DNA of 64,000 nt from a virus (Duplodnaviria; Caudoviricetes). A program made the position numbers and the translations under genes. Below the pieces are notes generated by a model, which did not search any database, was not told the DNA's origin, and was given only the letters and a program-made list of their open reading frames with translations. Location: the IMG/VR virus record IMGVR_UViG_3300012665_000674, positions 8,599-72,598 of that record. One strand, 5' to 3'. Below are positions 11,872 through 53,552 of the stretch, one piece after another; the first letter of the stretch is position 1, and each line of letters starts with the position of its first letter.

Positions 11872-12381
11872 TTATTTTAAAAACTCATCAATAGACAAGT
11901 CGTAATATAAACTATTTATTCTGTGAATCCCTATTAGAAACAATACAAAACTTGCTACACTACTACCTCTACCCACACCCCATAAAATATTATTACTACG
12001 CATAGTATCAACTAGATACTTTAAGTATTGTAATAATATAAACATATTTCTTTCGTGGAACATCAATAATTCTTCACCTGCTCTTTGTAGTTCTGCTTCA
12101 TTGGTGCATTGATCCAAAACAAATTTAGCAATATCCATTTCTAAATATTCTTTGGGCATTTGCCAATTAGATTGATTCTTCTTATCGAATTCTTCTATTG
12201 AGATATCGGGATTAACATATTCAATGAGTTTTGGTAAATCTTCAATTGAATATAGTACATTGTCAAGGGTAATTAACTTTTCAGTGTAAACTTGTTTTAT
12301 ATTGCGTGTAGGATCACGCAAAAATAAATCACACAAGTCATTTTCACTAAGAATAGGTTGTCCGTATATATCAGTACGCAT
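11872..12381 (-). CDS. dnaE: DnaE-like (Pol III alpha) fragment A: N-terminal part of the palm
   Basis: WGVGRGSSVASFVLFLIGIHRINSLYYDLSIDEFLK matches DnaE [34 protein letters not shown]. Confidence 0.85.
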   Translation of the reverse strand: MRTDIYGQPILSENDLCDLFLRDPTRNIKQVYTEKLITLDNVLYSIEDLPKLIEYVNPDISIEEFDKKNQSNWQMPKEYLEMDIAKFVLDQCTNEAELQRAGEELLMFHERNMFILLQYLKYLVDTMRSNNILWGVGRGSSVASFVLFLIGIHRINSLYYDLSIDEFLK

Positions 12382-12386
12382 ACAAC

Positions 12387-12415
12387 ATTATGACATAATT
12401 GATTTTAAAAATCAA
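12387..12415 (-). promoter_or_regulatory. sigma70-type promoter, predicted leaderless
   Basis: TTGATT-17-CATAAT, 5 nt before the ATG; no RBS. Confidence 0.6.
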
Positions 12416-12424
12416 CTAATATGG

Positions 12425-13018
12425 TTATTTTTCAGCTTCTGTGGTAAACAATATTTCGGATGATTTGTTATACTTTTCTTCCCAATCAAGTCCGCAGCCA
12501 AACCAATCACTATTTTTTACCAATTTAACAATTTTTTCTTTTTTGCTTATTTTAGGAATATCAGTAATTGATGTTGAAGATTCTAACCACCATCCCTTAT
12601 TACCAAAAGGGTTATGTGAAGCACTATCTATATCATATACAAATCTTACATCATCGCTTAACTCTGACCGAAACACTATGTCAGTTATTTCTAATCTACC
12701 TTCAACAATAGCATTTAATTTTAACAACAACAATATTGCTAAAATTTGATCATATGGTTCTTCGGGTAAAGTACATACTTTAATATCTGCTTGGGTATAT
12801 TTCTCAATAGCCTTTTTTTCAGCATCATGAACAAATACACTGTTTGATAAACAATCTGAAAGAAAATATATTATTCTATCCATTGCAATATTTTGTTCTC
12901 TAATTGACATGGTCTCAACTTCCATTGCCAATGATATTTCATAGATGTTCATTAAAAAGTTTCCTTCAAAATGAACAGCAGCCTGAAAACTAAAATCACG
13001 TTCTATTCTTGTTCCCAA
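12425..13018 (-). CDS. hypothetical protein
   Basis: 197 aa ORF. Confidence 0.75.
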   Translation of the reverse strand: MGTRIERDFSFQAAVHFEGNFLMNIYEISLAMEVETMSIREQNIAMDRIIYFLSDCLSNSVFVHDAEKKAIEKYTQADIKVCTLPEEPYDQILAILLLLKLNAIVEGRLEITDIVFRSELSDDVRFVYDIDSASHNPFGNKGWWLESSTSITDIPKISKKEKIVKLVKNSDWFGCGLDWEEKYNKSSEILFTTEAEK

Positions 13019-13253
13019 TTTGATCCTCTCGTTGTATGTTTACTTGAGTTTGGATGTTTTGTTTGCTAAACAATTCATCCATTTTTTTGCGTGATTCTTT
13101 ATGGTAACTTTCGATTACCATTTGAATCTGATGTATTAATGGACCGTTTCCCGTACGATGTGCAAAGGTTAGTTTAGTAGTTAAATCTGACAGTGCAGTT
13201 TGAAGTTCTTCCAAACTTTTATCAGATAAGTTATTGATGAACGGGTGTTCCAT
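12996..13253 (-). CDS. hypothetical protein
   Basis: 85 aa helical ORF. Confidence 0.7.
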   Translation of the reverse strand: MEHPFINNLSDKSLEELQTALSDLTTKLTFAHRTGNGPLIHQIQMVIESYHKESRKKMDELFSKQNIQTQVNIQREDQIGNKNRT

Positions 13254-13264
13254 TCAGATATTTA

Positions 13265-14302: not shown

Positions 14303-14324
14303 TGTTTTATTCCGTTATATATAT

Positions 14325-16805
14325 TTAGTATTGTGTATTGTCCGGTAAAATAGTTTGTCTCGGGAATAACACATAAAAATCTTTACTATTCAACGGATCT
14401 GGTACAGGATTTGCGCTAGGTAAGCCAGTCCAAGCAGGAGGACTTAGGTTATTGTCCCAATTATAAGTATCACTCTTATTAACACTAAATCTATCAATTT
14501 TAAAGTTAATTTGATTTAGTGTGTACGGCCAATTAGTTTCAATATTGACTTTTATCTCACTTGCTCTTCCGGGCTTTGTATAACAAATCACCCATGCTTG
14601 TGTGTACCCCAATGTACTACCGTTTTCTTGTTGACTTGTCATCCATAATGGTAAAAGTGTACTGTCAAGTTCTTGACCTAATACGTCTGCTACTTGAGTA
14701 CGCATATTATACAAACTATTAGGATATAGCGTTCTTGCAAACCCAGGAGTTAAACTGGTATAATATTCTTGATCTAATACTACGTCCCAACTAGTAAAAA
14801 TATTAGTTACACTTGTGTACCAAGGTCCTAAAAATAAGTTAATAGGTCTAGGCCAATATATGCTTTTCTCTATGCTAACACCTTGAGAATTTACAAGGTT
14901 ATCGATAACTTCACTATACACTACTTCATAAATTATGTTACCGGCAGCATTTTTTGCCACTGCTGTTTTTAATTCACCTAAAGTAATATTTCTCCAATAA
15001 TGATTTTCTCTTTGTATAGCGGCGATATACTCTTGGATATCACTTGCAAATATACCATATGCATGTTCGTATATAACACTATTAGCTTTACCAAAATAAA
15101 CATCATCTGCTCTATAAAGTGCTTCATTAGGTATCAACTCAGTGTTTTCCAACAATGTGTTTAATATCTGTCTATCTTGTATACTAGGTGCAGCCTGAAT
15201 GTATACGATATCAGTAGGTTGTCCATACTGCTGTAGCACATTTAGAGTAAACGTTTTAGATGATGAGACTATATTATAATCAGGTGAGAATGCATCAACT
15301 GTAAAAGTAAATTCAGTATTTTGTCCAACTGTTAAAAATTCACTTGTTGGCTGATCTGCGATAAAGCCTGTTATCTGCCCATTAGAAAGTAACGTTAAGT
15401 TAGGAGGTAAAGTACCTGATATGACTCTGTAATTTAAAGTAACGTCAGATGTTGCTTCAACAAATAATGTACTTATGGTTCCGTTATATACTGTACCCAA
15501 ATCAGTAGGAGTTACCCATATAATTTCTCCAGTAACATCCTTACTTAAATTAAATGCAAAGTTAAAGTTTGTCGTAGAAATAGCAGGATTTCCTTGCTTT
15601 CGTACACTTACGTTAAAACTATAATTGTTTATACCAGGCAATGATAATTCTGGCGTTCCAGTTATCCATCCTGTTTCAGAGTTACCTGTTAGCCAAGAAG
15701 GAAGATTTGAAAATATATACTCTAATGGATTACCATCAAAATCATATCCTAGCATTTTAAAAGCAAAATAGTTATTACTTAGTACTGATCCTATCTGTGC
15801 GTTTTGTGTTGGAGGAACAGGTGGTAATATATAATACCCATAATAAATATCACTTGGGCTAACTTCTATTGTTAAAGGTCTAGTGTTTAAAATAGTAGGA
15901 GTTCTAGTATTAGGAGGGTTACCCGGGCCGCCTTGTGAAGAAGGTGTGTTTTGATTTATTACTGTAATTGAATACGATCCTATATTTCCTCCCAACGGAC
16001 TTATCAATCTAACTTTAAAATTGAATGTTCTGATAGTAGGCTGACCAACTGAAATTACAGGCAATGTAACCGTCATTGCTCCGGTGGAATCACTAATAGG
16101 AAACGTATCACCGTTTTGCGTAGTACTTATTGAAATAGTATTTGCTACTGTATCAACTGTTTTAATATAGTAAGTAACTCCTTCTGAAATGTCACCTATT
16201 GTGTCTGTAAATGTTACTGGTCTTCCCGGAGTCATACCAGAAACATTTAAACAGTAGATAAAATCAGTAGTTGATTCTGTAGAAATACCAATAGTTGTTA
16301 CTAAAGGTAAAGTAACGTTAATAGTAGGTGGTAATGGATATCCTTGAATTAATCCTGTAGGAGATAATTCAAGACCTGGTGGAAGACTACCTTCCTGTAA
16401 TTCAATTAAAACAGGATTAGTTATATCAGGATTAGAATATTCAATGTTTAATTGAGTCCAAATACTATCTTGTGTACTTAACAATACACCTGCAGGTGTA
16501 GTAAATTGCGGAACCGCAGTACCCGTAATTGTTATGCTAAATGTTCTATCACGTATATTGTTTAAATTATCAGTAGCACGAATAGTAAATGATGTAGTTG
16601 TGTCTTGTGTGACTAGAGTTGGAATACCAGTCAATAATCCATTTACATCAATTACTAAATTAGTAGGGAGAGTGCCGGCAAGTAAACTATACGTAATATT
16701 AGTAGCAGGAGAAACAGGTGAAGCTAAAAACTGAAAAGATACATTTATACCATAAGGAAATGTACCTATAGTTCCGGCTGTAGTGTCCCATATTGGTTGT
16801 GCCAT
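14325..16805 (-). CDS. virion protein with putative Ig (He_PIG-like) repeats
   Basis: repeated GxLPxxLxLxxxGxIxGxP and FTIRATD units; start MAQPIW. Confidence 0.75.
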   Translation of the reverse strand: MAQPIWDTTAGTIGTFPYGINVSFQFLASPVSPATNITYSLLAGTLPTNLVIDVNGLLTGIPTLVTQDTTTSFTIRATDNLNNIRDRTFSITITGTAVPQFTTPAGVLLSTQDSIWTQLNIEYSNPDITNPVLIELQEGSLPPGLELSPTGLIQGYPLPPTINVTLPLVTTIGISTESTTDFIYCLNVSGMTPGRPVTFTDTIGDISEGVTYYIKTVDTVANTISISTTQNGDTFPISDSTGAMTVTLPVISVGQPTIRTFNFKVRLISPLGGNIGSYSITVINQNTPSSQGGPGNPPNTRTPTILNTRPLTIEVSPSDIYYGYYILPPVPPTQNAQIGSVLSNNYFAFKMLGYDFDGNPLEYIFSNLPSWLTGNSETGWITGTPELSLPGINNYSFNVSVRKQGNPAISTTNFNFAFNLSKDVTGEIIWVTPTDLGTVYNGTISTLFVEATSDVTLNYRVISGTLPPNLTLLSNGQITGFIADQPTSEFLTVGQNTEFTFTVDAFSPDYNIVSSSKTFTLNVLQQYGQPTDIVYIQAAPSIQDRQILNTLLENTELIPNEALYRADDVYFGKANSVIYEHAYGIFASDIQEYIAAIQRENHYWRNITLGELKTAVAKNAAGNIIYEVVYSEVIDNLVNSQGVSIEKSIYWPRPINLFLGPWYTSVTNIFTSWDVVLDQEYYTSLTPGFARTLYPNSLYNMRTQVADVLGQELDSTLLPLWMTSQQENGSTLGYTQAWVICYTKPGRASEIKVNIETNWPYTLNQINFKIDRFSVNKSDTYNWDNNLSPPAWTGLPSANPVPDPLNSKDFYVLFPRQTILPDNTQY

Positions 16806-16806
16806 A

Positions 16807-17427
16807 TTATCCTTGTAAGTATTGCATTGCAATTTCGTAATGATGTTTTCTATCTTCTAATCCAATAGTCCCACCATTGATACGTTTTGTTAATGTCACA
16901 AAATCATCTTTGTCGCAATATTGATTTAGTTTGTTATTATCCCAAAACCATCCGGCACTAGCAACAGCACCGTTTGGTGTTTCTAAATATGCAATAGTGT
17001 CCTCTAAATTCATTCCTAAATCATTAGCAAACTTTGTATAGTTATCACGACCAGTCAATTGAATTAATCCACGACCTCTGAATTTATAACCATCACCTGA
17101 TTGTTCATCACCATTTTTCATGCGATTAGCATATACACGGTTGGCAATCTTTTCTGGCTTACGTTCATATTGTTTTGCTAGTTCTTCAGTAGGGAAATAC
17201 TTCTTAAAAGTACCCATCAATCCTTTTGCTGAGTAATTTAAATTTTCTACTGTGGCGTTGAATCCACCTGATTCGTGTGCAATTTGTGCTAGAAAACCTG
17301 AAACTCTGCGTGGATTTTCGAGCATGTCATAATATTCTGCTACAGTATTCAATGGTTCTATAAACCCTTGAAGAATATTTGCTTTTGTGCGAGGGCACAT
17401 GTGAGTTAATAAATCTAATGTTATCAT
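16807..17427 (-). CDS. glycoside hydrolase family 19 endolysin
   Basis: FLAQIAHESGGF, ENLNYS, FRGRGLIQLTGRDNY, TKRINGG. Confidence 0.92.
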   Translation of the reverse strand: MITLDLLTHMCPRTKANILQGFIEPLNTVAEYYDMLENPRRVSGFLAQIAHESGGFNATVENLNYSAKGLMGTFKKYFPTEELAKQYERKPEKIANRVYANRMKNGDEQSGDGYKFRGRGLIQLTGRDNYTKFANDLGMNLEDTIAYLETPNGAVASAGWFWDNNKLNQYCDKDDFVTLTKRINGGTIGLEDRKHHYEIAMQYLQG

Positions 17428-17440
17428 GTTAAATCCTATT

Positions 17441-20170
17441 TTAATTATATGTTGCACCTGTAGTGTACCATTGTGTTGTAGTAGGTGCATAATATTGTAA
17501 TGAGGCACCTGCTACATGACTATATGATGTGTTAGTTCCACCTGAGTTAATTGCGGCTCCTGATGCTGGGAAGACGTTTAATGTAGAAGCACTTGTGTTA
17601 TTGATAATAATAACCATGCCTGCAACTGCTGTAGGTAATACGACTCCGTTTGCTCCTGCTGAAACTGTGCTAACAATATTAATTTCTTTAGTTAATAATG
17701 TAGCCCCACCTTGAAGATTAGCGCCTGCCGCAGTTATACCAGTCTCAACTGAACGTATATGATATGAACTTGCAATTAAATTAGCACCAGTAATATTGCC
17801 ACTACTAGACAATGATGTTAATGTTCCAACACTTGTTATGTTAGGTTGTGCCGCAGTTGTTACGGTACCTGCTGTGGTAGCACTAGGTACAGTACCTGTT
17901 ACATTACCACCGGTAATACTTGTTAATGCTTGTCCATTACCTATAATATTTCCAACACTTACATTACCTGTAGTAGTAATTGTATTTGAACCGTAACTTG
18001 CTAAGAATGTAGCAACGTTGCTATTACCATAAGTACCGTCAAAACTAACAGGAGTGCCGTTAGCATAATAATAATTATCTGTTTTGATACCAAGAACAGA
18101 TGCATTGCCTGTAGCACTCAACGTACCTGATATGTTCGAACCAGTACCAGTGATAGTCATTGTAGTATTACCGACAGCAGTGATAGTGACATTGCCGTTT
18201 GCTGTGGCAATATTAACATTACTATTGCCATTTGCAAGTGGACCTATTACATTTCCTACAGTAACATTTCCGCTAGCACTTAATGTACCTGTTATATTTG
18301 CACCAGTTCCAGTAATAATAACAACGTTTGAATTACCTATTGCACTTATTCCAATATTGCTATCAGCCGCAATTTGTATATTACTATTTCCATTTGCCAA
18401 TGTACCTACAAAATTACCTGATGAGGTATTCCCAGTAACTGATAAACTTGTTAGTGTACCTACGCTTGTAATATTAGGTTGTGCATTATCTACTACAGTG
18501 TTTGCTACTGTGGCTGCATTAGCATTTCCGTAAAATCTACCAACAAAGAAATTAGCAGTTGCAGTGTTACCTAAATTAGCATTGCCAAATGAAGTAGTGT
18601 CTCCGATGAAAACATTACCACGTATATTTCCATAATTTGTGAAAGTTACTACTTCACTAGATATGCTTACGTTACTTCCAAATCCAAATTCAGCATTACT
18701 ATTATCCCAGCCCATAAAGGCTGTGACTGGGGCAGTAGTATAATACTGTAGTGCAACACCTCTGTCTTTGCCGTCATTGGTTGTTAATGGATCACCGTTT
18801 GGTCCACCGCCTAATGAAATAATAGGATCTTCAACTACCAATGATTCAATATTAATATAAGTTGCATTACCTAATACCGATAAGTTACCATTAATGATTG
18901 CGTTATTTGCTACATTTAAATTACCTACATTAGCATTACCACTGGCACTTAGTGTACCTGTTATGTTAGCTCCGGTGCCTGTTATTACAACAACATTTGC
19001 ATTTCCAGTTGAACTAATTTCAATATTAGCATTAGCACTGATAACAACATTGCTATTTCCGTTAACTAGACTAGAACCCGCAGTTAACCCAGTTAATTGA
19101 CTACCGTTACCTATAAAATTACCTGCTGTTATATTGCCGGTACCACTTATAACACCGGCACCAAATCCTAAGTTGCCTACATTACTATTACCAGTACCAC
19201 TGATATTACCAACAAACAATGTTGCACCAACATTACCTATGTTAGCATTACTACTGACACTCAACGTACCTGTGATGTTAGCACCTGTGCCAGTAACAAC
19301 AATAACGTTGGCATTACCTTCAGCACTTACATTGATATTACCATTTGCACTAGGTATACTAATAGTACTGTTACCGTTTGCAAAAATTCCTAACAAATTA
19401 CCTACAGTAGCATTGCCTGCAACACTTAAATTAGGGGAAGCAAGAACTCCGCTTACTTTATTAAAAGTAAATCCAGTATTGCCACCAAATGATCCTGAAT
19501 CATTAAATTGCACAAATGTATTAATGCCACCAGGAGATCCACCACCACCTCCGCCACCCGCGGCCCATGCTAGATTACCAGCACCATCTGTTTGTAAGAA
19601 ATACCCTAATGTTCCACCTTGAATTTTAAAATTTGATACGTTAGCAATATTAAAATTAGCACCAGTAAAATTAACATTACCAGTTAATGTTACATTGTTT
19701 CCTACAGATAAATTACCAGAAACTGTGAGATTTGACAATGTACCTAAACTTGTTATATTAGGTTGTGCATTTGAATTACTTGTTAAGGTTCCGTTTAAAC
19801 TTGCTAATCCATTACTAACAGATGCAAAACGGTTTGAAAGTACTTGTGCAGGGTTTATATCTATGTTTAATTGTTGACTAGAACTAGTGATAGAAACATT
19901 ACTTTGTGTATTATCAGAACCGCGCCCTACTTTCAACGATGACGTTGCCACTTGCAAACATGCAATATTTGCTGATATAACAACGTTACCTGTAGGAAAA
20001 TTAACAGTAATACCTGCTCCAGGGGTTCTGTTAACAGAAGTAACCACTTGATCTACGTTTGCGTTGAACAACTGTGTGAAATTATTCTGTACTTTTAAGA
20101 ACGCTGTTCTAATCGCATCGGCTGATGGATCGTCGGGAAATGTTCCAAAATCTATATTTTGTTGAGCCAT
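17441..20170 (-). CDS. tail fibre-like protein
   Basis: gp9/gp10-like N-terminus (IRTAFLKVQNNF); AQPNITSVGTLTSL and ANGNSN repeats. Confidence 0.75.
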   Translation of the reverse strand: MAQQNIDFGTFPDDPSADAIRTAFLKVQNNFTQLFNANVDQVVTSVNRTPGAGITVNFPTGNVVISANIACLQVATSSLKVGRGSDNTQSNVSITSSSQQLNIDINPAQVLSNRFASVSNGLASLNGTLTSNSNAQPNITSLGTLSNLTVSGNLSVGNNVTLTGNVNFTGANFNIANVSNFKIQGGTLGYFLQTDGAGNLAWAAGGGGGGGSPGGINTFVQFNDSGSFGGNTGFTFNKVSGVLASPNLSVAGNATVGNLLGIFANGNSTISIPSANGNINVSAEGNANVIVVTGTGANITGTLSVSSNANIGNVGATLFVGNISGTGNSNVGNLGFGAGVISGTGNITAGNFIGNGSQLTGLTAGSSLVNGNSNVVISANANIEISSTGNANVVVITGTGANITGTLSASGNANVGNLNVANNAIINGNLSVLGNATYINIESLVVEDPIISLGGGPNGDPLTTNDGKDRGVALQYYTTAPVTAFMGWDNSNAEFGFGSNVSISSEVVTFTNYGNIRGNVFIGDTTSFGNANLGNTATANFFVGRFYGNANAATVANTVVDNAQPNITSVGTLTSLSVTGNTSSGNFVGTLANGNSNIQIAADSNIGISAIGNSNVVIITGTGANITGTLSASGNVTVGNVIGPLANGNSNVNIATANGNVTITAVGNTTMTITGTGSNISGTLSATGNASVLGIKTDNYYYANGTPVSFDGTYGNSNVATFLASYGSNTITTTGNVSVGNIIGNGQALTSITGGNVTGTVPSATTAGTVTTAAQPNITSVGTLTSLSSSGNITGANLIASSYHIRSVETGITAAGANLQGGATLLTKEINIVSTVSAGANGVVLPTAVAGMVIIINNTSASTLNVFPASGAAINSGGTNTSYSHVAGASLQYYAPTTTQWYTTGATYN

Positions 20171-20181
20171 ATTTGTTTACC

Positions 20182-20200
20182 TATTTATAATGTATTTATC
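20182..20200 (-). promoter_or_regulatory. tandem late promoter motifs (GATAAATA and T4-consensus TATAAATA)
   Basis: 20200-20193 and 20189-20182, upstream of the fibre gene. Confidence 0.65.
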
Positions 20201-20222
20201 GTTTTTACATAAATGGATGTCC

Positions 20223-20254
20223 AAAAAAATACCCGACTAAAAGCCGGGTATTTT
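20223..20254 (-). terminator. intrinsic terminator
   Basis: AAAATACCCG...CGGGTATTTTTTT after 20268..22841. Confidence 0.8.
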
Positions 20255-20267
20255 AATTTATCTAGTA

Positions 20268-22841
20268 TTAGATACCTGCTAATTTCTTCCAATCACTAAC
20301 TGATTCATTTAACATTTTTGATTCGTTAATATCTGTTGTACCTTGAGATACTGTACGATTAACTTGGCTAGAAAGAACAGGGATAGTTGATTGACCAGTA
20401 GATTTACGTTTGTTCAATCCACCACTTATGACGTTCATCATAAAATCAATATCTGTTTCAAATGTTGTATCAGACACAGTTTTTCCCGGACCAGCTTCAT
20501 TTGCCCACTCGTCTAGTTTTTTCTCTTTTTTGTCTTTCTTGTCATCATATTCAATGTCTTTTTTTACTTTGCTACCGGCACGTTCTGCTTTGTCATCGTC
20601 TTTACCTTTATGACCTTCGTCATATTCGATATCCTTAGCAACTTTCTTTGCAGCCTTTTCAGCTTTGTCATCTTTTTCACTAGTTGATTCTTCTGATAAC
20701 ATTGCTAATTTCTTGTAAAGATTAAAGAAACTTGACTCTGACATTCCTTCTTTCTTTTCTTCTTTACCAGCTTCTTCGCCAGTTTCATCTTCAGCTTCAT
20801 TAGTAGGACTTGAATATATTTGTCCTTCTTCTTCGTCCTGACCTGCATCTGCTATTGCTAATGCATTATCACTACCTACTTGACCTGCAACATCAGCATT
20901 GGTATTATCAGCACCTGAATCAGGAGCATTAGCTTCAGCTACTTCGTATTCCATTTGATCTTCTGACTCTACTTCACCGATCATTTCTTCATCGCAACCA
21001 CATGGGCTTGCACCACATGAATCGCATTCTTCGCTATGACCTTCTTCGCTCTCGTAGTCACCACTGCTAACTTCATCACCACCTGATAATTTTTTCATCA
21101 AAGCCATCATGCCGTCATGGTCATCTACTACACTGATACCACCGTGATCACCTGCGCCACCTTCGGGTGCACCATAACCACCTTTGTCTTCACCACCAAA
21201 CAAGCCTAAACCTGCAGTCTTGATAATTGATAATAACTGATCTGCTTCGCCATCTTGTGCTGATACTGATACTGAATCAGGTGCGCCTTGCTGACCTTTA
21301 CTGATAGAAACAGTCATGCCTTCTGAAACTTTGTTGTCGCTTTCAAGCAATGCATTTAACTGATTATCTAATGATTCAAAAGCAAATTCATCTAAAACAT
21401 CACTGTCATTGAAAGTTTGTCCAAACGCCTTAAATGTATCACCGGAAGTCTTTGCAGCCTGTTGTTTCATATAAGAAGTTTTATCCATTTCGTACATGTC
21501 ATCTTCCATAGCAGGTGTACGTGCGCCATAGCTAGCCATGTTTTCTACTTCATTATTCATCTCACCAACATAACCTTGAATTGGCATTTGACCATAACAT
21601 TCGTCTAGACCACACTTATAACCTTCGTGATATTGACGGGCTTCTTCCATGTTATCATGTCTGCAATTATACGGCATCTTTGATAACCCATGACTCTTGC
21701 CTTCATGATAGGCTGCTTTTAAATGGTGTTCCATACCTTCTTTAACTTTCTTTTTCTTTAAATCGTTTTTACCCTTACCATCTTCTGCATAGTCAGGTAT
21801 ACCGTTTTTGTTTGCATCTGGTTTAGATTTTTTACTTTCTAGTGCAACATTACTTCTAGCAGTGCCACTCAATGGACTTGCTTGTGCAAAGTTTTCTGGT
21901 CTTTCAGCTTCTTTGATTTTCTTTAGTTTTGAACCGGCAATACGCTTTGCAGCCTCTACACCGTATTTTGGTGTTAGTTTTTTAACTAATGCATCAAAGC
22001 CTGTAGTAGCATTGTTGTGCTTACCGATATCTTTTTCATTTACTTGGTCACGATAATCATATGCTGCACTATCTTTTCCTGATATGCGAGAGGCTACTGA
22101 CTTACGGTCATATGTGTGATGCTTTACAGGAATGTCGGGCTTGCCAGCCGAAGCTGAGACATTTGGTGGATTAGCAGCATTTATAGCATCACGCCTTTCG
22201 TCATCATTATTTGCAAACATTTCATCTAACTCATCTTCTGCCATTGCACCAACTTGCGAACCTGCACCTGTTGTTGAGGTAGCACTAGATGCAGTAGGAC
22301 TTGCTCCTGGCTTATGCATTGACAATGTTCCCTTCTTGGCTGCATCAACAACTGCTGGATCACTAGTTGTAATAGCTGCCGCTTGAGGATTTGAAGGGTC
22401 TTTGATCATGAAGTTTTGACCAGTTTGTTGCTTTGGCGCCGGAATAGGTTGAACAGATAATCCACCTTCATTCATTACTTCTTTATCCAATTGATCAAAC
22501 CAATCTTTTAAAGTACTTTTCTTTTTTTCTTCTTTCTCAGCAGCTTTTTCAGCTTTGTCACCAGCCTTCATTTTAGAATGTACTGTTCCTTTTTTGCCTG
22601 CAGGTGCTTTGCCTGTTGTACGACCAAATAGATCACCTTTTGGCGTATCTTTACTTGCTTTGGGTCCTTCATCTTTTTCTTGTCCGCCACGCTTTTTCTT
22701 TGGCTCATCTGATGCATCAGCACCAACGTCAAATTTGCGACCATAACCACCTGGCTCACTAGTATGTTTTACTCCAGTTTTAGTTTTTTCTGTAGCTTCA
22801 TTTAACTGGTCTAGTGACTGTAATAAGTTTCTAAAATTCAT
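20268..22841 (-). CDS. large charged low-complexity protein, possibly prohead core/internal
   Basis: 857 aa E/K/D-rich; many L/V/M-x-E sites; ends WKKLAGI. Confidence 0.6.
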   Translation of the reverse strand: MNFRNLLQSLDQLNEATEKTKTGVKHTSEPGGYGRKFDVGADASDEPKKKRGGQEKDEGPKASKDTPKGDLFGRTTGKAPAGKKGTVHSKMKAGDKAEKAAEKEEKKKSTLKDWFDQLDKEVMNEGGLSVQPIPAPKQQTGQNFMIKDPSNPQAAAITTSDPAVVDAAKKGTLSMHKPGASPTASSATSTTGAGSQVGAMAEDELDEMFANNDDERRDAINAANPPNVSASAGKPDIPVKHHTYDRKSVASRISGKDSAAYDYRDQVNEKDIGKHNNATTGFDALVKKLTPKYGVEAAKRIAGSKLKKIKEAERPENFAQASPLSGTARSNVALESKKSKPDANKNGIPDYAEDGKGKNDLKKKKVKEGMEHHLKAAYHEGKSHGLSKMPYNCRHDNMEEARQYHEGYKCGLDECYGQMPIQGYVGEMNNEVENMASYGARTPAMEDDMYEMDKTSYMKQQAAKTSGDTFKAFGQTFNDSDVLDEFAFESLDNQLNALLESDNKVSEGMTVSISKGQQGAPDSVSVSAQDGEADQLLSIIKTAGLGLFGGEDKGGYGAPEGGAGDHGGISVVDDHDGMMALMKKLSGGDEVSSGDYESEEGHSEECDSCGASPCGCDEEMIGEVESEDQMEYEVAEANAPDSGADNTNADVAGQVGSDNALAIADAGQDEEEGQIYSSPTNEAEDETGEEAGKEEKKEGMSESSFFNLYKKLAMLSEESTSEKDDKAEKAAKKVAKDIEYDEGHKGKDDDKAERAGSKVKKDIEYDDKKDKKEKKLDEWANEAGPGKTVSDTTFETDIDFMMNVISGGLNKRKSTGQSTIPVLSSQVNRTVSQGTTDINESKMLNESVSDWKKLAGI

Positions 22842-26727: not shown

Positions 26728-29700
26728 TTAGCCCAATGATGCTATCTCACCTGTGTTTAGAACTCTAACTGGGATATAGATGAATTCAGCTGCCTTAACA
26801 GGCTCAATTGCAACGTCAACCCATAGTTCATTTCTATCAATTCTTGCAGGTGTGTTATTGCTTTCATCACAAACTACAAGATAGTCATAGATACCGCGTT
26901 TTGCAACTAAGTCAACAAATAGTGATTGAATTACACCAGCAATTTGATTTCTAGTCAATGCGTCATTTGGTTCAAATACGAACGGTCTTGCTGCCAATGT
27001 TAATTGTCTACGAATATAAGCAATCAAACGTGCAACGTTTACTCTATCTAATGCGCTCTGTGAGTTGAAACTTGTTTTGTTACCATAGTTCAACAAACCA
27101 ATACCAGTGAAGAACACTAATGGATTGATAAAGTTGATGTATAGAACATCACGTATACCCAAGCGTGTTTTAATTGTAATAAACTCACCTGTAGTTGAAT
27201 CTAAGTAACCAATGTTTGTAGCATTGTCAATGTTACCACGGCGTGTACCAGCTGGTGCTAACCAAGGATAAGCAACAGTATCATTACGCAAGAATGTACG
27301 TAACATCATGTGACTTGGGGGAACAGCAACTAAGTTGCCACTCAAGTCAGGTGCAATTCCACTTGGGTAGAATAGACCTAGATATGTATTACGTGTAACA
27401 CAACCTGCTTCTCCTGTACTCTCTGCGCCGGCTGCGTTAGTAGCCCATGCTTGAATTGCAGTAGCATCATCAGGTAATCTCATTGGTGTGTCACCGATAA
27501 TATAACCTGTTTCACCACGATCTGCATTCAATACAACCATGTTAGGTTGTAGTTCTGGATAATAAGGTGCTGCTAACAAGTTAAAGAAATTATCTTCATC
27601 ACGAATATCAGTGTTAGTATCAACTACTGAACGTAATGATTCAACAACCATGTTACGTTGTGCTTGGCGACCCATGTATGGTGCACCGTTTGACTGTAAC
27701 CCACTAACACTTACCCAAGCAGATGTTACTGTAGGTAATGTTTCGTCAGGGAAACTTAAACTATTAAAGTAATTAACTTTATATTGTTTTACATTGTATC
27801 CTGAACGGCGTGTGTTAAACAACAACATACCAGCTGGATATAGTGCAGGATCCGGAGCATCTAAATCAACATAATCGCTTGTTAACAAAGTAACGATTGA
27901 GGGAATAGGATCATCGACTGGATTTGTAGTTCCATTCGGTGCCCAACGTGCATCTAAGAATGTAGCACCTCTAGAACTTGTTTGGTCTGCATTGTCAATT
28001 AATACCCAACCATCTGTAGTAGCATCTATTTCTTCCCAGCGACGGATGATAGGATAAGCCTCTAAGTCACTTGTGTCAATCCAAAGATCACCGTATACTA
28101 GTGCAGTACCGTCAGTTTGTGTTGTTGGCTCACTAGCACTTACAATCGGACCAGTTGGATTTGTTGTATTTGAACCTGATGTTGGGAAACCTGTAGTATC
28201 ATAGTTCAAGTTACCGTAACCATTCCATTGACCATTATATTGTACCATAATGTCTACTTGGTCAACAACACTCCAGAACCAGTTTGTATTATTAGCAGGG
28301 GCTGCTACTGGAGCGCCTTCGTTAGCTGTGTAAGTAAACTCCACCCAATTACTCAATTGAGTAGTGTAATAAATTGCAGGTGTGCCTGAAACATAAGTTA
28401 CCGCTGTAACAGGACCAGTACCACCGCCACCTGAAATTGTAGCGACTTTTAATACTAAATCGTTTCCTGGTGTTGCGCCACCAAGTGTTGCACCACTGAT
28501 TGTTAATGTGTCACCAACTGCATAACCTGTACCGTTTGTAATAACACCATCACCGATTAATCTGTAAACACCGTAAAATGCTGAAACTTGAATTGTTGCA
28601 TTTATACCACTACCTGAAGTTGATGTTACTGCTCTAGTAAATGGTGTTGTAAATGATACACCAAACTTACAACCAGGTGTTGTACCATTGATAAAGCCTA
28701 ATTCATCGATTATACCTTGTGAAATACCTTGATCGACACCAGATGGTTCAGTGTCAGCTAAAATTATTTCTCCACCTTCAGTGTGAATTAATTGAATTGC
28801 TCCATCTGTAGTCACAAGTGCTTGTGTATAAGGAATGTTAGTAGCGGACCATGCTGTTACGAAATCAGTAGCTGTATCACCAGAGGTTATTGGTATTTGA
28901 TACGTAGTACTTGATAAACTTGTTGAACCAGGTACACTTATTTCGGCAAATAAAGTTCCGGTAATTGTTGATTCATAATCTGTTACACTACTAGTAACTA
29001 CAGTAGCACCCAATGCACTTCTCTTCCACAAGTAGACCGGACCTTGTCCAAATGCGTTGTCATAATTATACTGTGCATAGATGCTTCCTGCAGGAATAGA
29101 TTGTCCTCCGCTTGAATCAAGACTTGCACTAGCAGCCCAGTCAGATGTATAGAGACTAACATTTCGTGCATTCCACACCGCAGTTGTTGAATTGTATTCA
29201 GATAATACTGGATTTAATCCATTTCCTGCAGAGCCAACTTTGATCCAAACAGAACCAGTAGGGCGAGGAACTGTTTGGCTTGATGTCCATAATGGCATCT
29301 GAGCAGATGTACCATATGACAATTCAGGTTGATAATAACTAAATGGATCTTCTGTTAAGCCCAAATCTTCAACTGCTGTACCAGTACTTACATTAATAAA
29401 CGAAACATGTTGATTTGCAGTTGCAGGTTGTGCTGAATATACATTCAATTTTCCTGAAGTAACACTTGCACTTACATATCCGTTGTTTAAAGTGTTAATA
29501 GCGTTTGCTACACCAGCAACAGTATTGTTAGGTGAATTCGGAACTGTAACAGTCAAGTTATATAATCCACTAACATTAATATTGAATACATCACCTGCAT
29601 TTAATGTAGGATTTGATTCTGTGCCCTGAGCAGTTGGCCAATCATTTTGCCAATCTACTGAACCTACTACTACCCATACGTTGCTAGTGGTCTTGTAAAA

Positions 29701-37067: not shown

Positions 37068-37076
37068 AGAATATAA

Positions 37077-38453
37077 ATGGCACAATTTTTCTATGACAAT
37101 CAGATACGCAGATTTTTAATTCAATTTGCAAAGATTTTTAGTAACTGGCAAGTTACTAAAGGTAAAGATCCGGCAGGCAATGAAATACTTGTTCGTGTGC
37201 CAGTTATGTATGGTGATAGCAGTAGACAAGCTAGTACTATCATTGCCAATAATAGTTCAAGTAATCTTCCTAGTGCACCACTAATTACATATTATATTAG
37301 TGGATTAGAGTACGATCAAAGGCGTACACAAGACCCTACATTTATTGACACAGTAAATGTTCGTCAACGTGCGTATGATAGTGAAACACAAACGTATGAA
37401 CAAACACAAGGACAAGCATTTACTGTTGAACGATTAATGCCAGTGCCCTATACATTAAGAATTACTGTAGATTTTTGGACTACTAATTACAATCAAAAAC
37501 TTGAACTAGTTGAACAAATTGGCACGTTGTTTAATCCAGCATTAGAAATTCAAAGTACTGATAATTTTATTGATTGGACTTCTCTTAGTGTAGTTTATCA
37601 GGACGGATTAACTTTTAGCAGTCGTAGTATTCCTCAGGGTACAGGTAATCCCATTGATGTATTGACTTGGAAATTCTATATGCCAATATGGATTAGTACA
37701 GCAAGTAAACTTAAGAAGATGGGTGTTATTGAAAAGATTATTGCAAGTATTTTTATGGGAAAATCTTTAACAGATATGCAAGATGAAGATTTGTTGTTGG
37801 GTACTAGACAAAAGATTACTCCATACGGATACAAGGTATTGTTATTGGGTAATACATTGCAAATATTACCACAAGCTATAGCATTTGACCCTAATAATAT
37901 AAGTTTAGATGATCCAACCCCACCCAACACAGACGTTTATTGGTCAAGTGTGTTAAACGTGTACGGAACCATCAAGCCTGGTATAAGTCAAATATGGTTA
38001 CAAAATCCATATATGGAAACAGATATTGTTGGTACAATTGTACCTGATCCAGTTGATGATAGATTATTAATCTATAATATAGATCCAGATACCCTGCCAC
38101 AAAACACATTGGACCCTGTCGACGGTGTAATTAATCCTCTTGTCACTGGGCCAAACGCAGGGTTACCTGGACCTATTAATGGCCGTAGATATCTTATTGT
38201 TGAAGATATAGGACATCCAGGTGATCCTACTTTGGCATGGGGTAATTTGGTTGCCCGTGCTAATGATATTATTCAATTTGATTCAACTACAATGGAATGG
38301 TCTGTAGCATTTGATGCAAATGCATCTACTATTACTACGCTTGAATATGTTACTAACTTAACAACAGGTGTTCAATATAGATTTGTTGATAACATTTGGA
38401 TGAAGTCGTATGAAGGCTGGTATGGTGAGGGAGATTATTCTATTGTGATATGA
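37077..38453 (+). CDS. gp15: tail sheath stabiliser/terminator (T4 gp15-like), extended
   Basis: FFYDNQIRRF, VPVMYG, PVPY, EQIGTLFNP. Confidence 0.85.
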   Translation: MAQFFYDNQIRRFLIQFAKIFSNWQVTKGKDPAGNEILVRVPVMYGDSSRQASTIIANNSSSNLPSAPLITYYISGLEYDQRRTQDPTFIDTVNVRQRAYDSETQTYEQTQGQAFTVERLMPVPYTLRITVDFWTTNYNQKLELVEQIGTLFNPALEIQSTDNFIDWTSLSVVYQDGLTFSSRSIPQGTGNPIDVLTWKFYMPIWISTASKLKKMGVIEKIIASIFMGKSLTDMQDEDLLLGTRQKITPYGYKVLLLGNTLQILPQAIAFDPNNISLDDPTPPNTDVYWSSVLNVYGTIKPGISQIWLQNPYMETDIVGTIVPDPVDDRLLIYNIDPDTLPQNTLDPVDGVINPLVTGPNAGLPGPINGRRYLIVEDIGHPGDPTLAWGNLVARANDIIQFDSTTMEWSVAFDANASTITTLEYVTNLTTGVQYRFVDNIWMKSYEGWYGEGDYSIVI

Positions 38454-38456
38454 TTT

Positions 38457-38888
38457 GTGATAAATCATATTATGAAGAATCAATCCGCTGGCGTTTTCTT
38501 TTATAACCATAATACAAAACGTTTTCTATATCTATTAAGAACTGATAGCAAGAACCCAGGCAACTGGGGAATTCCTGGTGGAAAAATAGAATTAGATGAA
38601 ACATTACTAGAAGGTATTGCTAGAGAATGTGAAGAAGAAATTGGCTTCTTTCCAAAAAATGCTAAATTAATACCTATACAAAAGTTTATCAATAATAATT
38701 TTATCTACCATACGTTCTTTTGTGAAGTTGACAATGAATTCATTCCAAAGTTAAATGAAGAACATTGTGGGTATGCTTGGGTGGGTGAAGGACAATATCC
38801 TAAGCCATTGCATCCAGGATTATTCAGCACTTTCAACTTTGACATTGTACAAGAAAAATTGAACGCACTAACAAAAAAAGAGACCTAA
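38457..38888 (+). CDS. NUDIX hydrolase
   Basis: WGIPGGKIELDETLLEGIARECEEEIG Nudix box; likely start MKNQ. Confidence 0.92.
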   Translation: MINHIMKNQSAGVFFYNHNTKRFLYLLRTDSKNPGNWGIPGGKIELDETLLEGIARECEEEIGFFPKNAKLIPIQKFINNNFIYHTFFCEVDNEFIPKLNEEHCGYAWVGEGQYPKPLHPGLFSTFNFDIVQEKLNALTKKET

Positions 38889-45584: not shown

Positions 45585-45585
45585 A

Positions 45586-49321: not shown

Positions 49322-50758
49322 CTACTTTTTTAATGAATTTAATAATGTTTTAAGTTTTGATCCCTGAACATCTGCTAAAACTCTTTTATTATCAGGTTCT
49401 AATATTTCCCCTGTAGCCTGATTAATAATGGTATCAGAAGATGCCAATGTAGACTGTGGTTTTAATCTAGTCATAATGTCATTTGGACTAGGACTAGGTT
49501 TGAATTTTGATTGTTGTTCAGCATATCCGTCTGGATCAGTATCTGTTATTCGCATAGTTTCAATGTTATATTCCAAATCAATCTTTTGTCCTACGCCAGT
49601 AGAACTACGACTTTTCATACATTGAATTTGATATTGACCACGTTCACGCATACTACGACTTGTAAAAATACCGAACACATTATCTGCTGTATTAATTTTA
49701 CTGATACCACCTGCAATGTGACTATGATCGAATTCAATTTCTTCAACTGCGCTACGATTCAACTGACTTGCGGTAACCATAAGAATACCTAATTCTTTTG
49801 CTAAGTTACGCAATTCTTCACTTACGTATTTGTCTTTGATAAACTGATCGTTAGGATTTACCTTGACACTAACTGGCATAACCAAATCAAGATAATCAAT
49901 CATTACAAAGTCAACTTTGATTCCAGTTTGAATTTGTACTTCTTTTAAATATGACCTAATATCATTGACATTGCTTTGTGCAGGCAAACCCTTAACACGA
50001 TACTGTCCTGATTTTTTACCTGCCAGTTTTACTTTAAGTTCAGTATTATCAATATCTTTACGAATATCTCTGGTACTCATCATAGTCAACATAGCATCAG
50101 TTCTCAATGAAGTCAATTCTTCACTCAATTCTAAACTGATATAAACACCACTGAGCCCTTGTTGCAGCCAGTTAAGTGCAATATTCATCATAACCAATGA
50201 TTTACCTGAACCACTACCACCTGCAAAGATATTCAATTCACCACGACTGAATCCACCATACAATAGTTTATCAAGTTGCGGCCACCCTGTACTTACTTGT
50301 CCACCTGAATTGAAATACTTGTTAATACGTGCTTTAGGATCAGCAAAGTAATCAGTGCCCATGTCTCGTTGTAAACTAATCTGTACTGCATCTTTGATTA
50401 ATTTTTCAACAGGGCCAAAGTCACCCTTCTCTAGCATGTCGGCTGATTTAAGAATTGCTCGTTCTAATTCTTGTCGTTTTGTAAATGATTCAAACTCAGC
50501 AAGAAACCATTCAGTATGTTTGTCACCAAAATCTTCAATGGCATCAAGCTGAATGCCTGTAGTTGCATTGATTTGTGTACAGTCAGGTAACAAACTATAT
50601 TTTTCACTATACTCCTTCATAAACTCTGCTACAGGTCTTAGTGACTTGTCAAAGTTTTCCGGATTCATTATGTTCATTACCCGTGTATATAATTCTGCGT
50701 TTGTAATCATCATACGCAAAAAGAGTTTTTGAACCTCAATATTATAATCCTTTAGCAA
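49322..50758 (-). CDS. gp41: replicative DnaB-type helicase (T4 gp41-like)
   Basis: AGGSGSGKS, ISLELSE, IDYLDL, TASQLNR, KSR. Confidence 0.93.
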   Translation of the reverse strand: MLKDYNIEVQKLFLRMMITNAELYTRVMNIMNPENFDKSLRPVAEFMKEYSEKYSLLPDCTQINATTGIQLDAIEDFGDKHTEWFLAEFESFTKRQELERAILKSADMLEKGDFGPVEKLIKDAVQISLQRDMGTDYFADPKARINKYFNSGGQVSTGWPQLDKLLYGGFSRGELNIFAGGSGSGKSLVMMNIALNWLQQGLSGVYISLELSEELTSLRTDAMLTMMSTRDIRKDIDNTELKVKLAGKKSGQYRVKGLPAQSNVNDIRSYLKEVQIQTGIKVDFVMIDYLDLVMPVSVKVNPNDQFIKDKYVSEELRNLAKELGILMVTASQLNRSAVEEIEFDHSHIAGGISKINTADNVFGIFTSRSMRERGQYQIQCMKSRSSTGVGQKIDLEYNIETMRITDTDPDGYAEQQSKFKPSPSPNDIMTRLKPQSTLASSDTIINQATGEILEPDNKRVLADVQGSKLKTLLNSLKK

Positions 50759-51713
50759 TTTTTTTCCTCTGCATTTCTATTTTAATTTTACTATTTGTTG
50801 CACTATGAAGTATACTTAGTAGGGTAGGCAATTTGCCATATTTAACTACTGCATCATTCACATCTTTTACGTCAGTATCCCAATCGGGTAAACTAACTTG
50901 ATATCCCAATTCTAATGCCCTATCACACATTTTTAATCCAGTCTTATCACGATCTGGCACAACAATAATTTGCTTGTTTAACGTGCTTAGTAGTTGTGCT
51001 TGGTCATTACTAATTTCATCATGCATGACTGCTACACCATCGATACTTAATGCATCAAATATACCTTCAGTTAAGATACAAACAATCCATTCAGGTTTCT
51101 GTGCATCTAAATTAAAAACATACCCTGGTTGTTGTTCATTGATATATTTTGGTATTTTGTTATCTAAGAATCTACTTGTATGACCAACTATTTTATTTTT
51201 GTATGTGTAGGGTATAATGACTCTGTTTGACATTCTACCAAATTCATTAGGAGTAATTAAAAACGGATAGTCGTTTGTATCTATCTTTCGTTTTTCTAAA
51301 TAGTCCACATATGATTTGTGTGCTGGGTTGTTACTATCAACAATCTCACCTTCAGGTAATACATGGTCGTTGAACTTTATTTTTACACGTTCTTTTTTTA
51401 CCTGCGTGAAATCTAATAAGTCTTTGTGTTGTAAACTTTCTAAACTCCAGCGTTGAACTTGTTCATTATCAACTCCGCACCAGCTTAATAGATTACGTGT
51501 TTTTGATGTGATGCTTCTACCCAATACAAAATTGCATTTGAACCCACAATTAAAGCAATGCATAGACCAATTATGGCCGTCAAGTTTTACTCCACCACGC
51601 ATTCTACGATCAGGTTTATGACCGAAGTGGTTGCAACAAACTGCGTTAAAGCTAGTCCAACCTGAACTTGTTAGTTTCTTTTTCCCCGGAAGTACTGATA
51701 GTATATCAAACAT
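50742..51713 (-). CDS. gp61: DNA primase (T4 gp61/DnaG-like)
   Basis: Zn finger (HCFNCG), TOPRIM TEGIFDA, PDRD, KDVND. Confidence 0.9.
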   Translation of the reverse strand: MFDILSVLPGKKKLTSSGWTSFNAVCCNHFGHKPDRRMRGGVKLDGHNWSMHCFNCGFKCNFVLGRSITSKTRNLLSWCGVDNEQVQRWSLESLQHKDLLDFTQVKKERVKIKFNDHVLPEGEIVDSNNPAHKSYVDYLEKRKIDTNDYPFLITPNEFGRMSNRVIIPYTYKNKIVGHTSRFLDNKIPKYINEQQPGYVFNLDAQKPEWIVCILTEGIFDALSIDGVAVMHDEISNDQAQLLSTLNKQIIVVPDRDKTGLKMCDRALELGYQVSLPDWDTDVKDVNDAVVKYGKLPTLLSILHSATNSKIKIEMQRKKIAKGL

Positions 51714-51719
51714 CTAGAC

Positions 51720-51749
51720 AGTGTAACATATTTGTATACAGTAAATCAA
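51720..51749 (-). promoter_or_regulatory. sigma70-type promoter, predicted leaderless
   Basis: TTGATT-18-TACACT, 6 nt before the ATG. Confidence 0.6.
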
Positions 51750-51762
51750 CAGTTGTGGTGAT

Positions 51763-52524
51763 TTACCTAGTTAATATGTTGGTGACTGCACCCGAGTTAC
51801 TGTTGAATTCCATTCTTATGTATGGATGATATCCTTGAATAACATACCCAAGTGTATCTGTTGTATTAGAAACGGTATCAGTTGTTATAATAGGATACCA
51901 ATCACCATCGACAATTGCTGAACCTTGAATTACAGTATTACCATAAAATTCTTCATACTTAGTTTGGATGGTCAAAACGGGATTGTCATTAGTAGAAAGC
52001 ACACTAGAATAGTAAGTCAGGTCACCACTTGAGTTACTAATGTTAGGGAATTGCTGACCACTTGGAATACTTAACTCATATGAAGCTACAAAGTTAGGTA
52101 ATACACTATTAACAATATTCATTACTCCACGTGCGCCTGCATTTTGATCTACGAATACAGGGTAGTCAAATTCACTCACAGGAATTTCTAAAGTATAGTA
52201 ACATTTCTGTGCTTCAATGTTTTCTAAGTCTGCCGCATTTAAAAACAATGCACAAATACCAGTAGCAGGCAACTGTAGTGTCAGTGCTTTTTGAATAAGG
52301 ATCTCATTTCCTTCGTAGTTAAGGATTCTACAGGTGATGCTCTTTCCAGTAATATCGACGGGTTTTTGTTCCTGATTAAGGAATTGGAATTGAAGTTGAT
52401 TGTCAACTCCTTTATGCAATGTTAATGGTTTTGCGTAGACTGGCATATATTTCCTTGGTGAATAGCCTGACAATAGCACGACAATATTGCGCTGAAAGTA
52501 ATAAAATACTGATGTTGAATACAC
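51763..52524 (-). CDS. putative structural protein (BppU-like N-terminal domain)
   Basis: LHKGVDNQLQF..NQEQKPVDITG; GTG start with AGGAG; CTAAATA upstream. Confidence 0.55.
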   Translation of the reverse strand: MYSTSVFYYFQRNIVVLLSGYSPRKYMPVYAKPLTLHKGVDNQLQFQFLNQEQKPVDITGKSITCRILNYEGNEILIQKALTLQLPATGICALFLNAADLENIEAQKCYYTLEIPVSEFDYPVFVDQNAGARGVMNIVNSVLPNFVASYELSIPSGQQFPNISNSSGDLTYYSSVLSTNDNPVLTIQTKYEEFYGNTVIQGSAIVDGDWYPIITTDTVSNTTDTLGYVIQGYHPYIRMEFNSNSGAVTNILTR

Positions 52525-52616
52525 AAATGTAGGCTCCTAATATTATATTTAGTCTAAAGAATTTTCTTTTATTAACTTTGGTTCACCCAATACTAAATAA
52601 AACTATTGATATTACA

Positions 52617-53000
52617 ATGATTCACAACGAATTTTTTAAACGTTTAAGCGAAAATCACCCGTTCATAACAGTGTGTTCATATGCCAACCAAGATTATGTT
52701 GGGATAGTACAAAATCGTGACGAAATGGTCACTACAATATATGACTATGGATCAATAATTGACCCTAATATTAAAGAGAAATTTTTAGAATTGGGGGAAG
52801 TTTGGTGGTGGGAAAGCAATCGACTTATTCCTATAAATCTATTTTTAAAGGAAGACTGGGCTATTTTTAAGCCCTACATTCGCACCTTTAACAACAAGAG
52901 CCTAGTAGTTGTGCATGGCCCTGTATGTAGCATGGCCGAGTTAAGTAAACGCAGGTCCAAACGCCGTAGTATTACTCTGGTCAAGAGACTCCCTCAATAA
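52617..53000 (+). CDS. hypothetical protein
   Basis: WWWESNRLIPINLFLK; overlaps the dnaE fragment B 3' end convergently by 60 nt. Confidence 0.7.
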   Translation: MIHNEFFKRLSENHPFITVCSYANQDYVGIVQNRDEMVTTIYDYGSIIDPNIKEKFLELGEVWWWESNRLIPINLFLKEDWAIFKPYIRTFNNKSLVVVHGPVCSMAELSKRRSKRRSITLVKRLPQ

Positions 53001-53552
53001 GTTCATATGAACTACAACTAGATTAGCATAAGCAATTGCATGTGCTTTTTTAAAAACATACCCATCTGTTCCCTTATCCCATACAGTCTTTGCAACTTCA
53101 CTCCAAGTTTTTCCGATTAAATGTTTTTTACCCGGACGAATTACCGCTAAGAACATAGCAAGTCTTGGAATACTATCTACTGGTTCTGGCATCTTTTGTA
53201 GATTATAAAACTGATTATTTAAGTGAATCAATTGTTCAACAAATTTACTGTCTGTTAACTTAGACCAATCAGGATCACGCATTAATTCTATTAAATGAAT
53301 TTCATCACGTACTTTTTCGTATACATGCACATTCAACAAATCTAATTTAAAATATCCACGTTTTTCTGCTTCTGTATAATCAATACTTGCAATATCATTG
53401 ATTGGATCATAGGGTATATCTGTAACATATATACCAGTTGCATGATTACGTATAGGCTTAACGTTACGCATAGCCGCACGTGTGTGCTTGATAAGTTTCA
53501 ATAAATGGTCTCGACTACCAAAGTCAATGTCAATGTCTGAATCGATTCTCAT
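52941..53552 (-). CDS. dnaE: DnaE-like (Pol III alpha) fragment B: catalytic aspartates and reduced fingers
   Basis: DIDIDF, HATGIY, YFKLDLL, AVIRPG, GYVFKKAHAIAYA match DnaE DFDVDF, HAGGVV, LVKFDFL, ALFRPG, GYGFNKSHSAAYA. Confidence 0.85.
   Translation of the reverse strand: MRIDSDIDIDFGSRDHLLKLIKHTRAAMRNVKPIRNHATGIYVTDIPYDPINDIASIDYTEAEKRGYFKLDLLNVHVYEKVRDEIHLIELMRDPDWSKLTDSKFVEQLIHLNNQFYNLQKMPEPVDSIPRLAMFLAVIRPGKKHLIGKTWSEVAKTVWDKGTDGYVFKKAHAIAYANLVVVHMNLLRESLDQSNTTAFGPAFT

Follow-up and report, generated by a model that had tools for sequence, protein, structure and literature searches.

What do two short genes of an uncultured virus encode, if they lie about 40 kb apart and carry between them the motifs of a bacterial replicative DNA polymerase? 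We analysed a 64,000-nucleotide stretch (the window) of IMGVR_UViG_3300012665_000674, a 72.6-kb IMG/VR virus record with a CheckV completeness of 21%. One gene, which we call N-half (P0001; 11872..12381, minus strand), starts with ATG and encodes 169 amino acids (aa). The other, C-half (P0002; 52941..53552, minus strand), starts with ATG and encodes 203 aa. Group 2.2 jumbo phages (Rak2/121Q/PA5oct/Atu_ph07-like) encode a split minimal DNA polymerase III (Pol III) alpha. We consider it likely that N-half and C-half are the N-terminal and the C-terminal unit of this enzyme in an uncultured jumbo phage, and that the pair is an accessory polymerase. N-half ends in GVGRGSSVASFVLFLIGIHRINSLYYDLSIDEFLK and a stop codon (GVGRGSS...DEFLK-stop). 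C-half starts with MRIDSDIDIDF and carries HATG at residue 37, KLDLL at 69, IRPG at 138 and FKKAH at 167. A sequence-only reading of the window had quoted these motifs in two open reading frames (ORFs), and every one of them was located in the two translations. The palm is shared between the two: residues ~73–169 of N-half form its first part and include the nucleotide-binding motif GVGRGSS. C-half has the Mg-binding DxDxD (D6, D8, D10), the second palm segment, which contains K69-x-D71, and reduced fingers carrying R139-P140 and K168/H171. The coordinates given in that reading were right, but its gene picture needed correction. Both genes are on the minus strand, and the plus-strand frames at both sites are crowded with stops. 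On the coding strand, the DxD half (C-half) is upstream and the GRGS half (N-half) is downstream, with a gap of 40,560 nt. Because a plus-strand block of virion genes (35352-38888) stands between them, N-half and C-half are not on one transcript but belong to separate transcription units.

Homology searches related both products to C-family polymerases. N-half matched the Pfam family PF07733 (DNA_pol3_alpha) with an expectation value (E) of 2.5e-9 and 37.6 bits (cut-off, 23.9), and this family was matched once per record in all five records searched. In PHROGs, N-half matched phrog_11127 (4.3e-39) and C-half matched phrog_11778 (2e-56), both nearly over the full length and both under the label "DNA polymerase". 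When an 80-row profile of C-half was searched against the PDB, all nine matches were Pol III alpha, and the best was E. coli 2hnh (E 6e-6). In the alignment with 2hnh, KxD pairs with KFD near residue 553, RP pairs with RP near 640, and FKKSHA pairs with FNKSHS near 758. The N-half profile, which was built with single-chain forms (see below) included, matched the same nine Pol III alpha entries (9/9; best E 1e-5 over E. coli 319-419), and this match continues straight over the break point. Furthermore, hhalign of the C-half profile with a bacterial DnaE gave a probability of 89.5% (E 2e-6) and paired HATG with HAAG. A profile comparison with DnaE and PolC had been proposed from the letters alone; both family profiles matched Pol III alpha exclusively in the PDB. 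On these sequence comparisons, the likeness of both ORFs to Pol III alpha is more than chance.

Predicted folds point in the same direction. AlphaFold2 models were made for each half separately; the C-half model had a predicted local distance difference test (pLDDT) of 94.8 and a predicted template modelling score (pTM) of 0.87, and the N-half model had 84.3 and 0.70, respectively. In a fold search (VIA), the 14 best entries for C-half were all C-family polymerases (Z 9.5-6.2), and the next unrelated row had a Z of 3.1. The best was 3e0d (Z 9.5, root-mean-square deviation (rmsd) 3.8 A, 194 residues aligned, chain 459..885), while PolC 3f2c had a Z of 9.4 and E. coli 2hnh a Z of 7.9 (chain 397..809). 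The 12 best entries for N-half were also all C-family polymerases (Z 11.0-6.8; next row, 2.1), and the alignment with E. coli 2hnh (Z 9.1, rmsd 2.5 A, 91 aligned) covered chain 279..393. Since N-half maps to 279..393 and C-half to 397..809 of the same chain, the two products lie end to end along the palm and fingers of DnaE. In Foldseek, Pol III alpha took the first 13 rows for C-half and the first 5 rows for N-half. It had been claimed that the ORFs abut just before DxD, and both the fold mapping and the junction in single-chain relatives support this.

Much of DnaE is missing from the pair. DIDIDF and HATG are 31 residues apart, start to start, compared with 111 in a bacterial DnaE, and IRPG and KKAH are 29 residues apart, compared again with 111; these measurements agree with the short spacing noticed at first reading. 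Thus, ~80 residues are gone between DxD and HAxG, where the thumb is located, and ~80 are gone between RPG and KSH, within the fingers. Of the earlier claim that the thumb and most of the fingers are deleted, the first part stands, whereas the fingers are shortened by ~80 residues and keep their motifs. C-half ends 32 residues past the KSH motif, where bacterial DnaE continues for ~390 more, and everything that precedes the palm in bacterial DnaE is absent from N-half. The PHP domain (PF02811), which had not been visible in the letters, was unmatched in 5/5 records (the contig and four relatives), while the control search matched 14/14 genomes. For the clamp-binding, HhH, OB and C-terminal domains, whose Pfam models were not run, there is no room in the 32 residues past KSH. 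Residues 1–70 of N-half form a small alpha/beta region, and a search of the first 72 residues against the ESM Atlas gave scores of only 0.84, below a level that shuffled proteins also reached. By sequence and model, the two chains between them make up the whole of a C-family active site plus reduced fingers and keep no other part of DnaE.

The residues of this predicted active site are conserved. D6, D8, K69, D71 and P140 were invariant in all 80 rows of the C-half alignment, which are 29-57% identical to the window's C-half, and D10, H37, G40, R139, K142, K168 and H171 were kept in at least 90% of the rows. The aspartates of the DxD and KxD motifs singled out at first reading are kept, D6, D8 and D71 in 80/80 rows and D10 in at least 90%. 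GVGRGSS was invariant in 36/36 N-half rows. The conserved palm columns are reportedly the catalytic residues of E. coli alpha. The ratio of nonsynonymous to synonymous substitution rates (dN/dS) was 0.04-0.05 for C-half in pairwise comparison with its three closest relatives (dS ~1.6). For N-half, a relative of 96% identity gave 0.26 (dS 0.066), and relatives of 77-79% identity, for which dS was saturated (>2), gave ~0.07. The dN/dS check named in the sequence-only reading thus gave values well below 1 for both halves, and by this sequence measure both are under purifying selection.

Proteins that carry both units in one chain were also found. When C-half was used to scan 1.84 billion representative proteins, 375 relatives were found at E ≤0.001. 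In one of them, a protein of 375 aa (P0053), the C-half match begins at residue 190; its first 180 residues are 37% identical to N-half (E 8e-19), and residues 190-370 are 40% identical to C-half (E 2e-38). Two more single-chain forms (P0153 and P0154), both 376 aa and 78-81% identical to the 375-aa form, came from other sources. All three have EF[IL]K, the terminus of N-half, then a conserved 9-residue linker and then DxDxD, and the stop of N-half coincides with the point where the single-chain relatives continue. They lie on metagenomic contigs of 5.9 kb or less. A scan of viral contigs for their genomic setting gave no match, and the one metagenome scanned for single-chain forms had just two ordinary DnaE genes. 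In a metagenome contig, ORFs for a 382-aa PHP part and, next to it, a 933-aa polymerase part that starts with TTG make up an otherwise ordinary DnaE (L174:8366-12382, plus strand); the gene may truly be split, or a frameshift or a wrongly called start may account for the two ORFs. In a quick tree of the C-half regions (all rows kept, midpoint root for drawing only), the three single-chain forms made one clade (support 100) nested in a group (support 96) that has nine stand-alone C-halves as its remaining members. This nesting fits a secondary fusion as the origin of the single-chain form, provided that the root lies outside that group. A joint MAFFT alignment of all three kinds of sequence (single-chain, N-half and C-half) was discarded because the N-halves had been placed against the C-terminal region. 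Intein families were absent by Pfam at E up to 1 and the chain ends match the single-chain junction, in keeping with the earlier statement that there are no split-intein ends.

N-half and C-half were predicted to form a complex. All three runs scored 0.90, and none of three controls scored above 0.00. The mark used was reached by 58/80 solved complexes and 2/110 mismatched pairs, counts that hold only roughly because custom alignments were used. The runs agreed in at least 98% of contacts, with a partner pLDDT of at least 88. In the predicted interface, residues 134-136 of N-half, beside GRGS, stand against residues 9-11 of C-half, in the DxD strand. The complex model suggested in the sequence-only reading thus passes its controls, and the modelled active site is built from both chains, although the pass may reflect likeness to solved single-chain DnaE structures, which contain both parts.

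The two genes occur together. Among 16 related IMG/VR records chosen by C-half, all seven with at least 47 kb downstream of C-half contain N-half; seven of the other nine have less than 36 kb downstream, and two are borderline (40.4 and 42.4 kb). In a second sample, 11 of 12 records chosen by N-half contain C-half. The twelfth, G021 (348.7 kb, rated 100% complete), has N-half and lacks C-half and the primase gene. The ends of this record map to window positions 50752 and 60573, and the ~9.8 kb between them is not in the record. C-half is therefore lacking because the contig break leaves this segment out, and the completeness estimate is too high. In all 18 long virus records, two of which look like near-copies of one another, the genes are on one strand, with C-half first and a gap of 34.7-48.2 kb. 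The finished genome of the isolate PA5oct has the same order with a gap of 43 kb, and Atu_ph07 has a very different spacing. In a phage collection, N-half was found in 95 records and C-half in 96, with nearly equal organism tallies (the lists were compared by tally). Among the matches listed, the window's N-half is at most 49.5% identical and its C-half at most 47% identical to those of isolates. The family is abundant: C-half is in at least 596 IMG/VR loci, and N-half matched 7969 of 8000 scored protein clusters. Co-occurrence, which had been named as a check, thus holds in 7/7 long-enough records of the first sample and 11/12 of the second, and the worry that the two-gene layout is an assembly artefact is answered by its repetition in 18 records and PA5oct. 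A non-covalent heterodimer of ~370 aa, as proposed at the outset, gains support from the single-chain forms of 375-376 aa, co-occurrence, conservation, dN/dS and the complex score. From these sequences and models, non-covalent assembly of N-half and C-half seems highly probable.

C-half lies in a block with primase and helicase genes. On the coding strand, the order is endonuclease VII, a DEDD exonuclease, C-half, a conserved unknown ORF, a DnaG-type primase and a DnaB-type helicase. The primase (50742..51713, minus strand, 323 aa; phrog_47, 2.9e-33) is two genes downstream of C-half and is followed by the DnaB-like replicative helicase (49322..50758, minus strand, 478 aa; phrog_19, 1.2e-73); PA5oct shares the order C-half, primase, helicase. 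The conserved ORF between C-half and the primase (51763..52524, minus strand, 253 aa) belongs to phrog_1084 (unknown function) and has no Pfam match. A relative of it is downstream of C-half in 63/80 loci, and some of the other 17 loci end early. At this position PA5oct has a gene whose product is annotated as structural, having been detected by mass spectrometry. The exonuclease is an Rv2179c-like DEDD 3'-5' exonuclease of 186 aa (53549..54109, minus strand; PF16473, E 2.8e-33; phrog_255), and its stop overlaps the start codon of C-half (ATGA). Of the related loci, 73 extend 600 nt or more upstream of C-half; such a gene adjoins C-half in 24 of these, is elsewhere in the flank in 19 and is absent in 30. 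The protein encoded upstream of C-half in PA5oct, read by eye, does not look like an exonuclease. We rejected the exonuclease as a general obligate partner of C-half because it is directly adjacent in only 24/73 loci; it could be a partner or proofreader of the mini polymerase, or an unrelated nuclease. N-half has unknown ORFs as neighbours and a GroES-like gene nearby.

A family B polymerase is found beside the pair in relatives. Because the contig is a 21% fragment, the company of the window's phage was inferred from relatives. All three relatives rated at least 95% complete have one family B polymerase ORF (904-917 aa), and family B polymerase ORFs of 901-917 aa were found in two of five long fragments searched (G004 and G008). 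In these two fragments the gene is 25-30 kb beyond N-half, and at that spacing the window's family B gene would therefore lie off the contig end. The otherwise T4-type replisome assumed earlier thus has its family B polymerase in 3/3 near-complete relatives, but not in the window's own contig.

Other features of the window were recorded along the way. Two ORFs on opposite strands matched tail-sheath families, one of 1192 aa (26728-30306, minus strand; phrog_10581, 1.9e-204) and the other of 458 aa (37077-38453, plus strand; phrog_11196, 3.8e-73). A 754-aa ORF (1364-3628, minus strand) with AAA+ signatures matched phrog_4871, an 'ATP-dependent protease' family, along its entire length (3.7e-230). 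Near N-half, ORFs of 835, 909 and 857 aa (14325-22841, minus strand) had no PHROG match at E ≤1e-5. ARAGORN found no tRNA or tmRNA genes in the window (1-64000).

How would such a pair work? In the mechanism that we propose, the 169-aa product contributes the first part of a Pol-beta-like palm with the GRGS triphosphate-binding motif, and the 203-aa product contributes the metal-binding aspartates of DxDxD and KxD, the remaining palm and the shortened fingers. The chains, made from separate transcription units, would join non-covalently into one active site of ~370 residues that has no PHP, thumb, clamp-binding, HhH or OB modules. The assembled site would carry out template-directed nucleotidyl transfer in a distributive manner. 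It would be an accessory of the family B replicase that might, for instance, extend primers beside the primase and helicase, fill gaps or act in repair. The steps differ in strength. Judging from the motifs, nucleotidyl transfer that depends on D8, D10 and D71 is quite likely, and template-directed DNA synthesis by the pair is a somewhat weaker expectation that we nevertheless favour. Any particular role, whether as an accessory polymerase near the primase and helicase or in repair, can be put forward only tentatively. A more ambitious picture is doubtful as a whole. In it, the pair and its single-chain cousins would be working template-dependent polymerases and the smallest known C-family enzymes; they would pass primers from the primase and helicase to the family B replicase, like Pol alpha or firmicute DnaE; the coupled exonuclease would proofread; and the single-chain form would have come from secondary fusion of split genes 40 kb apart, in phages of ~350 kb.

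Several observations weigh against the accessory polymerase. C-half had no Pfam match, and phmmer searches of the PDB with the single sequence of each half found no DnaE at a significant level. Neither half reached E ≤0.001 in Foldseek against the PDB (best 3.6e-3 and 5.5e-2), and no counterpart of the first ~70 residues of N-half was found in the fold searches. Conservation of D10 is incomplete (at least 90% of the rows), and dS is near or beyond saturation for most pairs. No match to the family B polymerase family (PF00136) was found in the window's contig, itself a 21%-complete fragment. DNA binding may be too weak for a lone polymerase because the thumb, clamp-binding and HhH modules are gone. 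Finally, a literature search found no biochemical or genetic data for any member.

The alternative that survives best, though we regard it as unlikely, is that the pair is an active nucleotidyltransferase of the Pol-beta fold that does not copy a template, such as a terminal transferase, an enzyme that adds to the ends of proteins or nucleic acids, or a maker of a nucleotide signal. The Pol-beta superfamily includes many non-templated transferases, the loss of the thumb and all processivity modules would suit one, and the 3'-5' exonuclease, translationally coupled in this subclade, could equally act on RNA or oligonucleotides. However, the fingers motifs RP(G) and (K/N)K(S/A)H are kept as well, aligned with DnaE and at least 90% conserved, the closest folds are C-family polymerases exclusively, and C-half is in a block with a primase and a helicase. 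It is very unlikely that the products are catalytically dead remnants with a structural or regulatory part in the replisome, or that they act separately. Location of the genes 40 kb apart in different transcription units would agree with this, but the metal-binding aspartates and GRGS are invariant at only 29-57% identity and are kept in the single-chain forms, the genes co-occur, and the predicted interface makes an active site from both chains. That the split is an artefact of misassembly or frameshift, or is undone after translation by a split intein as in the natural split of cyanobacterial DnaE, is hardly credible, since the layout recurs in 18 virus records and PA5oct with a start and a stop of its own for each gene, and N-half ends at the single-chain junction with no extra intein pieces of 100 aa and 35 aa and no intein detected by Pfam.

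If the pair is active as a polymerase, it would be a minimal C-family core of ~370 residues, made of the palm and reduced fingers in one or two chains. It would show what a bacterial replicase manages without its PHP, thumb and clamp-binding modules, and it would be a model for how the C-family replicase was built up, along the lines argued by Iyer et al. 2021 (PMC7824862). A role beside a family B replicase would bear on replication of large phages because this environmental jumbo-phage clade is very abundant. For a first test of biochemical activity, a single-chain form would be a convenient construct.

Is this kind of polymerase new? The novelty implied by the sequence-only reading did not hold, because the same reading is already in print (Iyer, Anantharaman, Krishnan, Burroughs, Aravind 2021, Viruses 13:63, PMC7824862). 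That paper describes a split, "minimal" Pol III alpha in group 2.2 jumbo phages: its N-terminal unit binds NTPs, its C-terminal unit binds Mg and template, and the two are encoded by distant genes, with a family B polymerase beside them. Iyer et al. 2021 was the sole description of the split found by our literature search, and single-chain forms are unmentioned in the text that the search covered. Database annotations already name one or both halves "DNA polymerase III alpha". Thus, the split minimal Pol III alpha is an already known kind, and the window's copy is an uncultured, abundant relative. The three single-chain forms, the constant order and spacing in 18 records, and the coupled DEDD exonuclease may be new.

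The window's pair shares with the split Pol III alpha of group 2.2 jumbo phages the same two families (PHROGs 11127 and 11778; PA5oct gp196 and gp264), the same division into units, and the order and neighbours seen in PA5oct. It differs from the isolates in coming from an uncultured clade, and its subclade often has a DEDD exonuclease upstream of C-half. Like DnaE and PolC, it has the palm motifs GRGS, DxD and KxD and the fingers motifs RPG and KSH in collinear order, with fold Z of 9-11. Unlike them, it is in two chains, lacks PHP and thumb, and ends 32 residues past KSH with no clamp-binding, HhH, OB or tau-binding region. Cyanobacterial DnaE, which is naturally split and rejoined by an intein, is likewise a C-family polymerase from two distant genes. 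In the window's pair, however, the intein halves are absent, the break is inside the palm just before DxD, and the products are expected to stay two chains. Firmicute DnaE reportedly extends primase-made primers before hand-off to PolC. By analogy, the window's pair would also be a second, C-family polymerase beside the main replicase, encoded two genes from a primase and near a helicase. Unlike in the firmicute DnaE/PolC pair, the main replicase of the phage would be of family B, and the likeness is one of functional analogy only.

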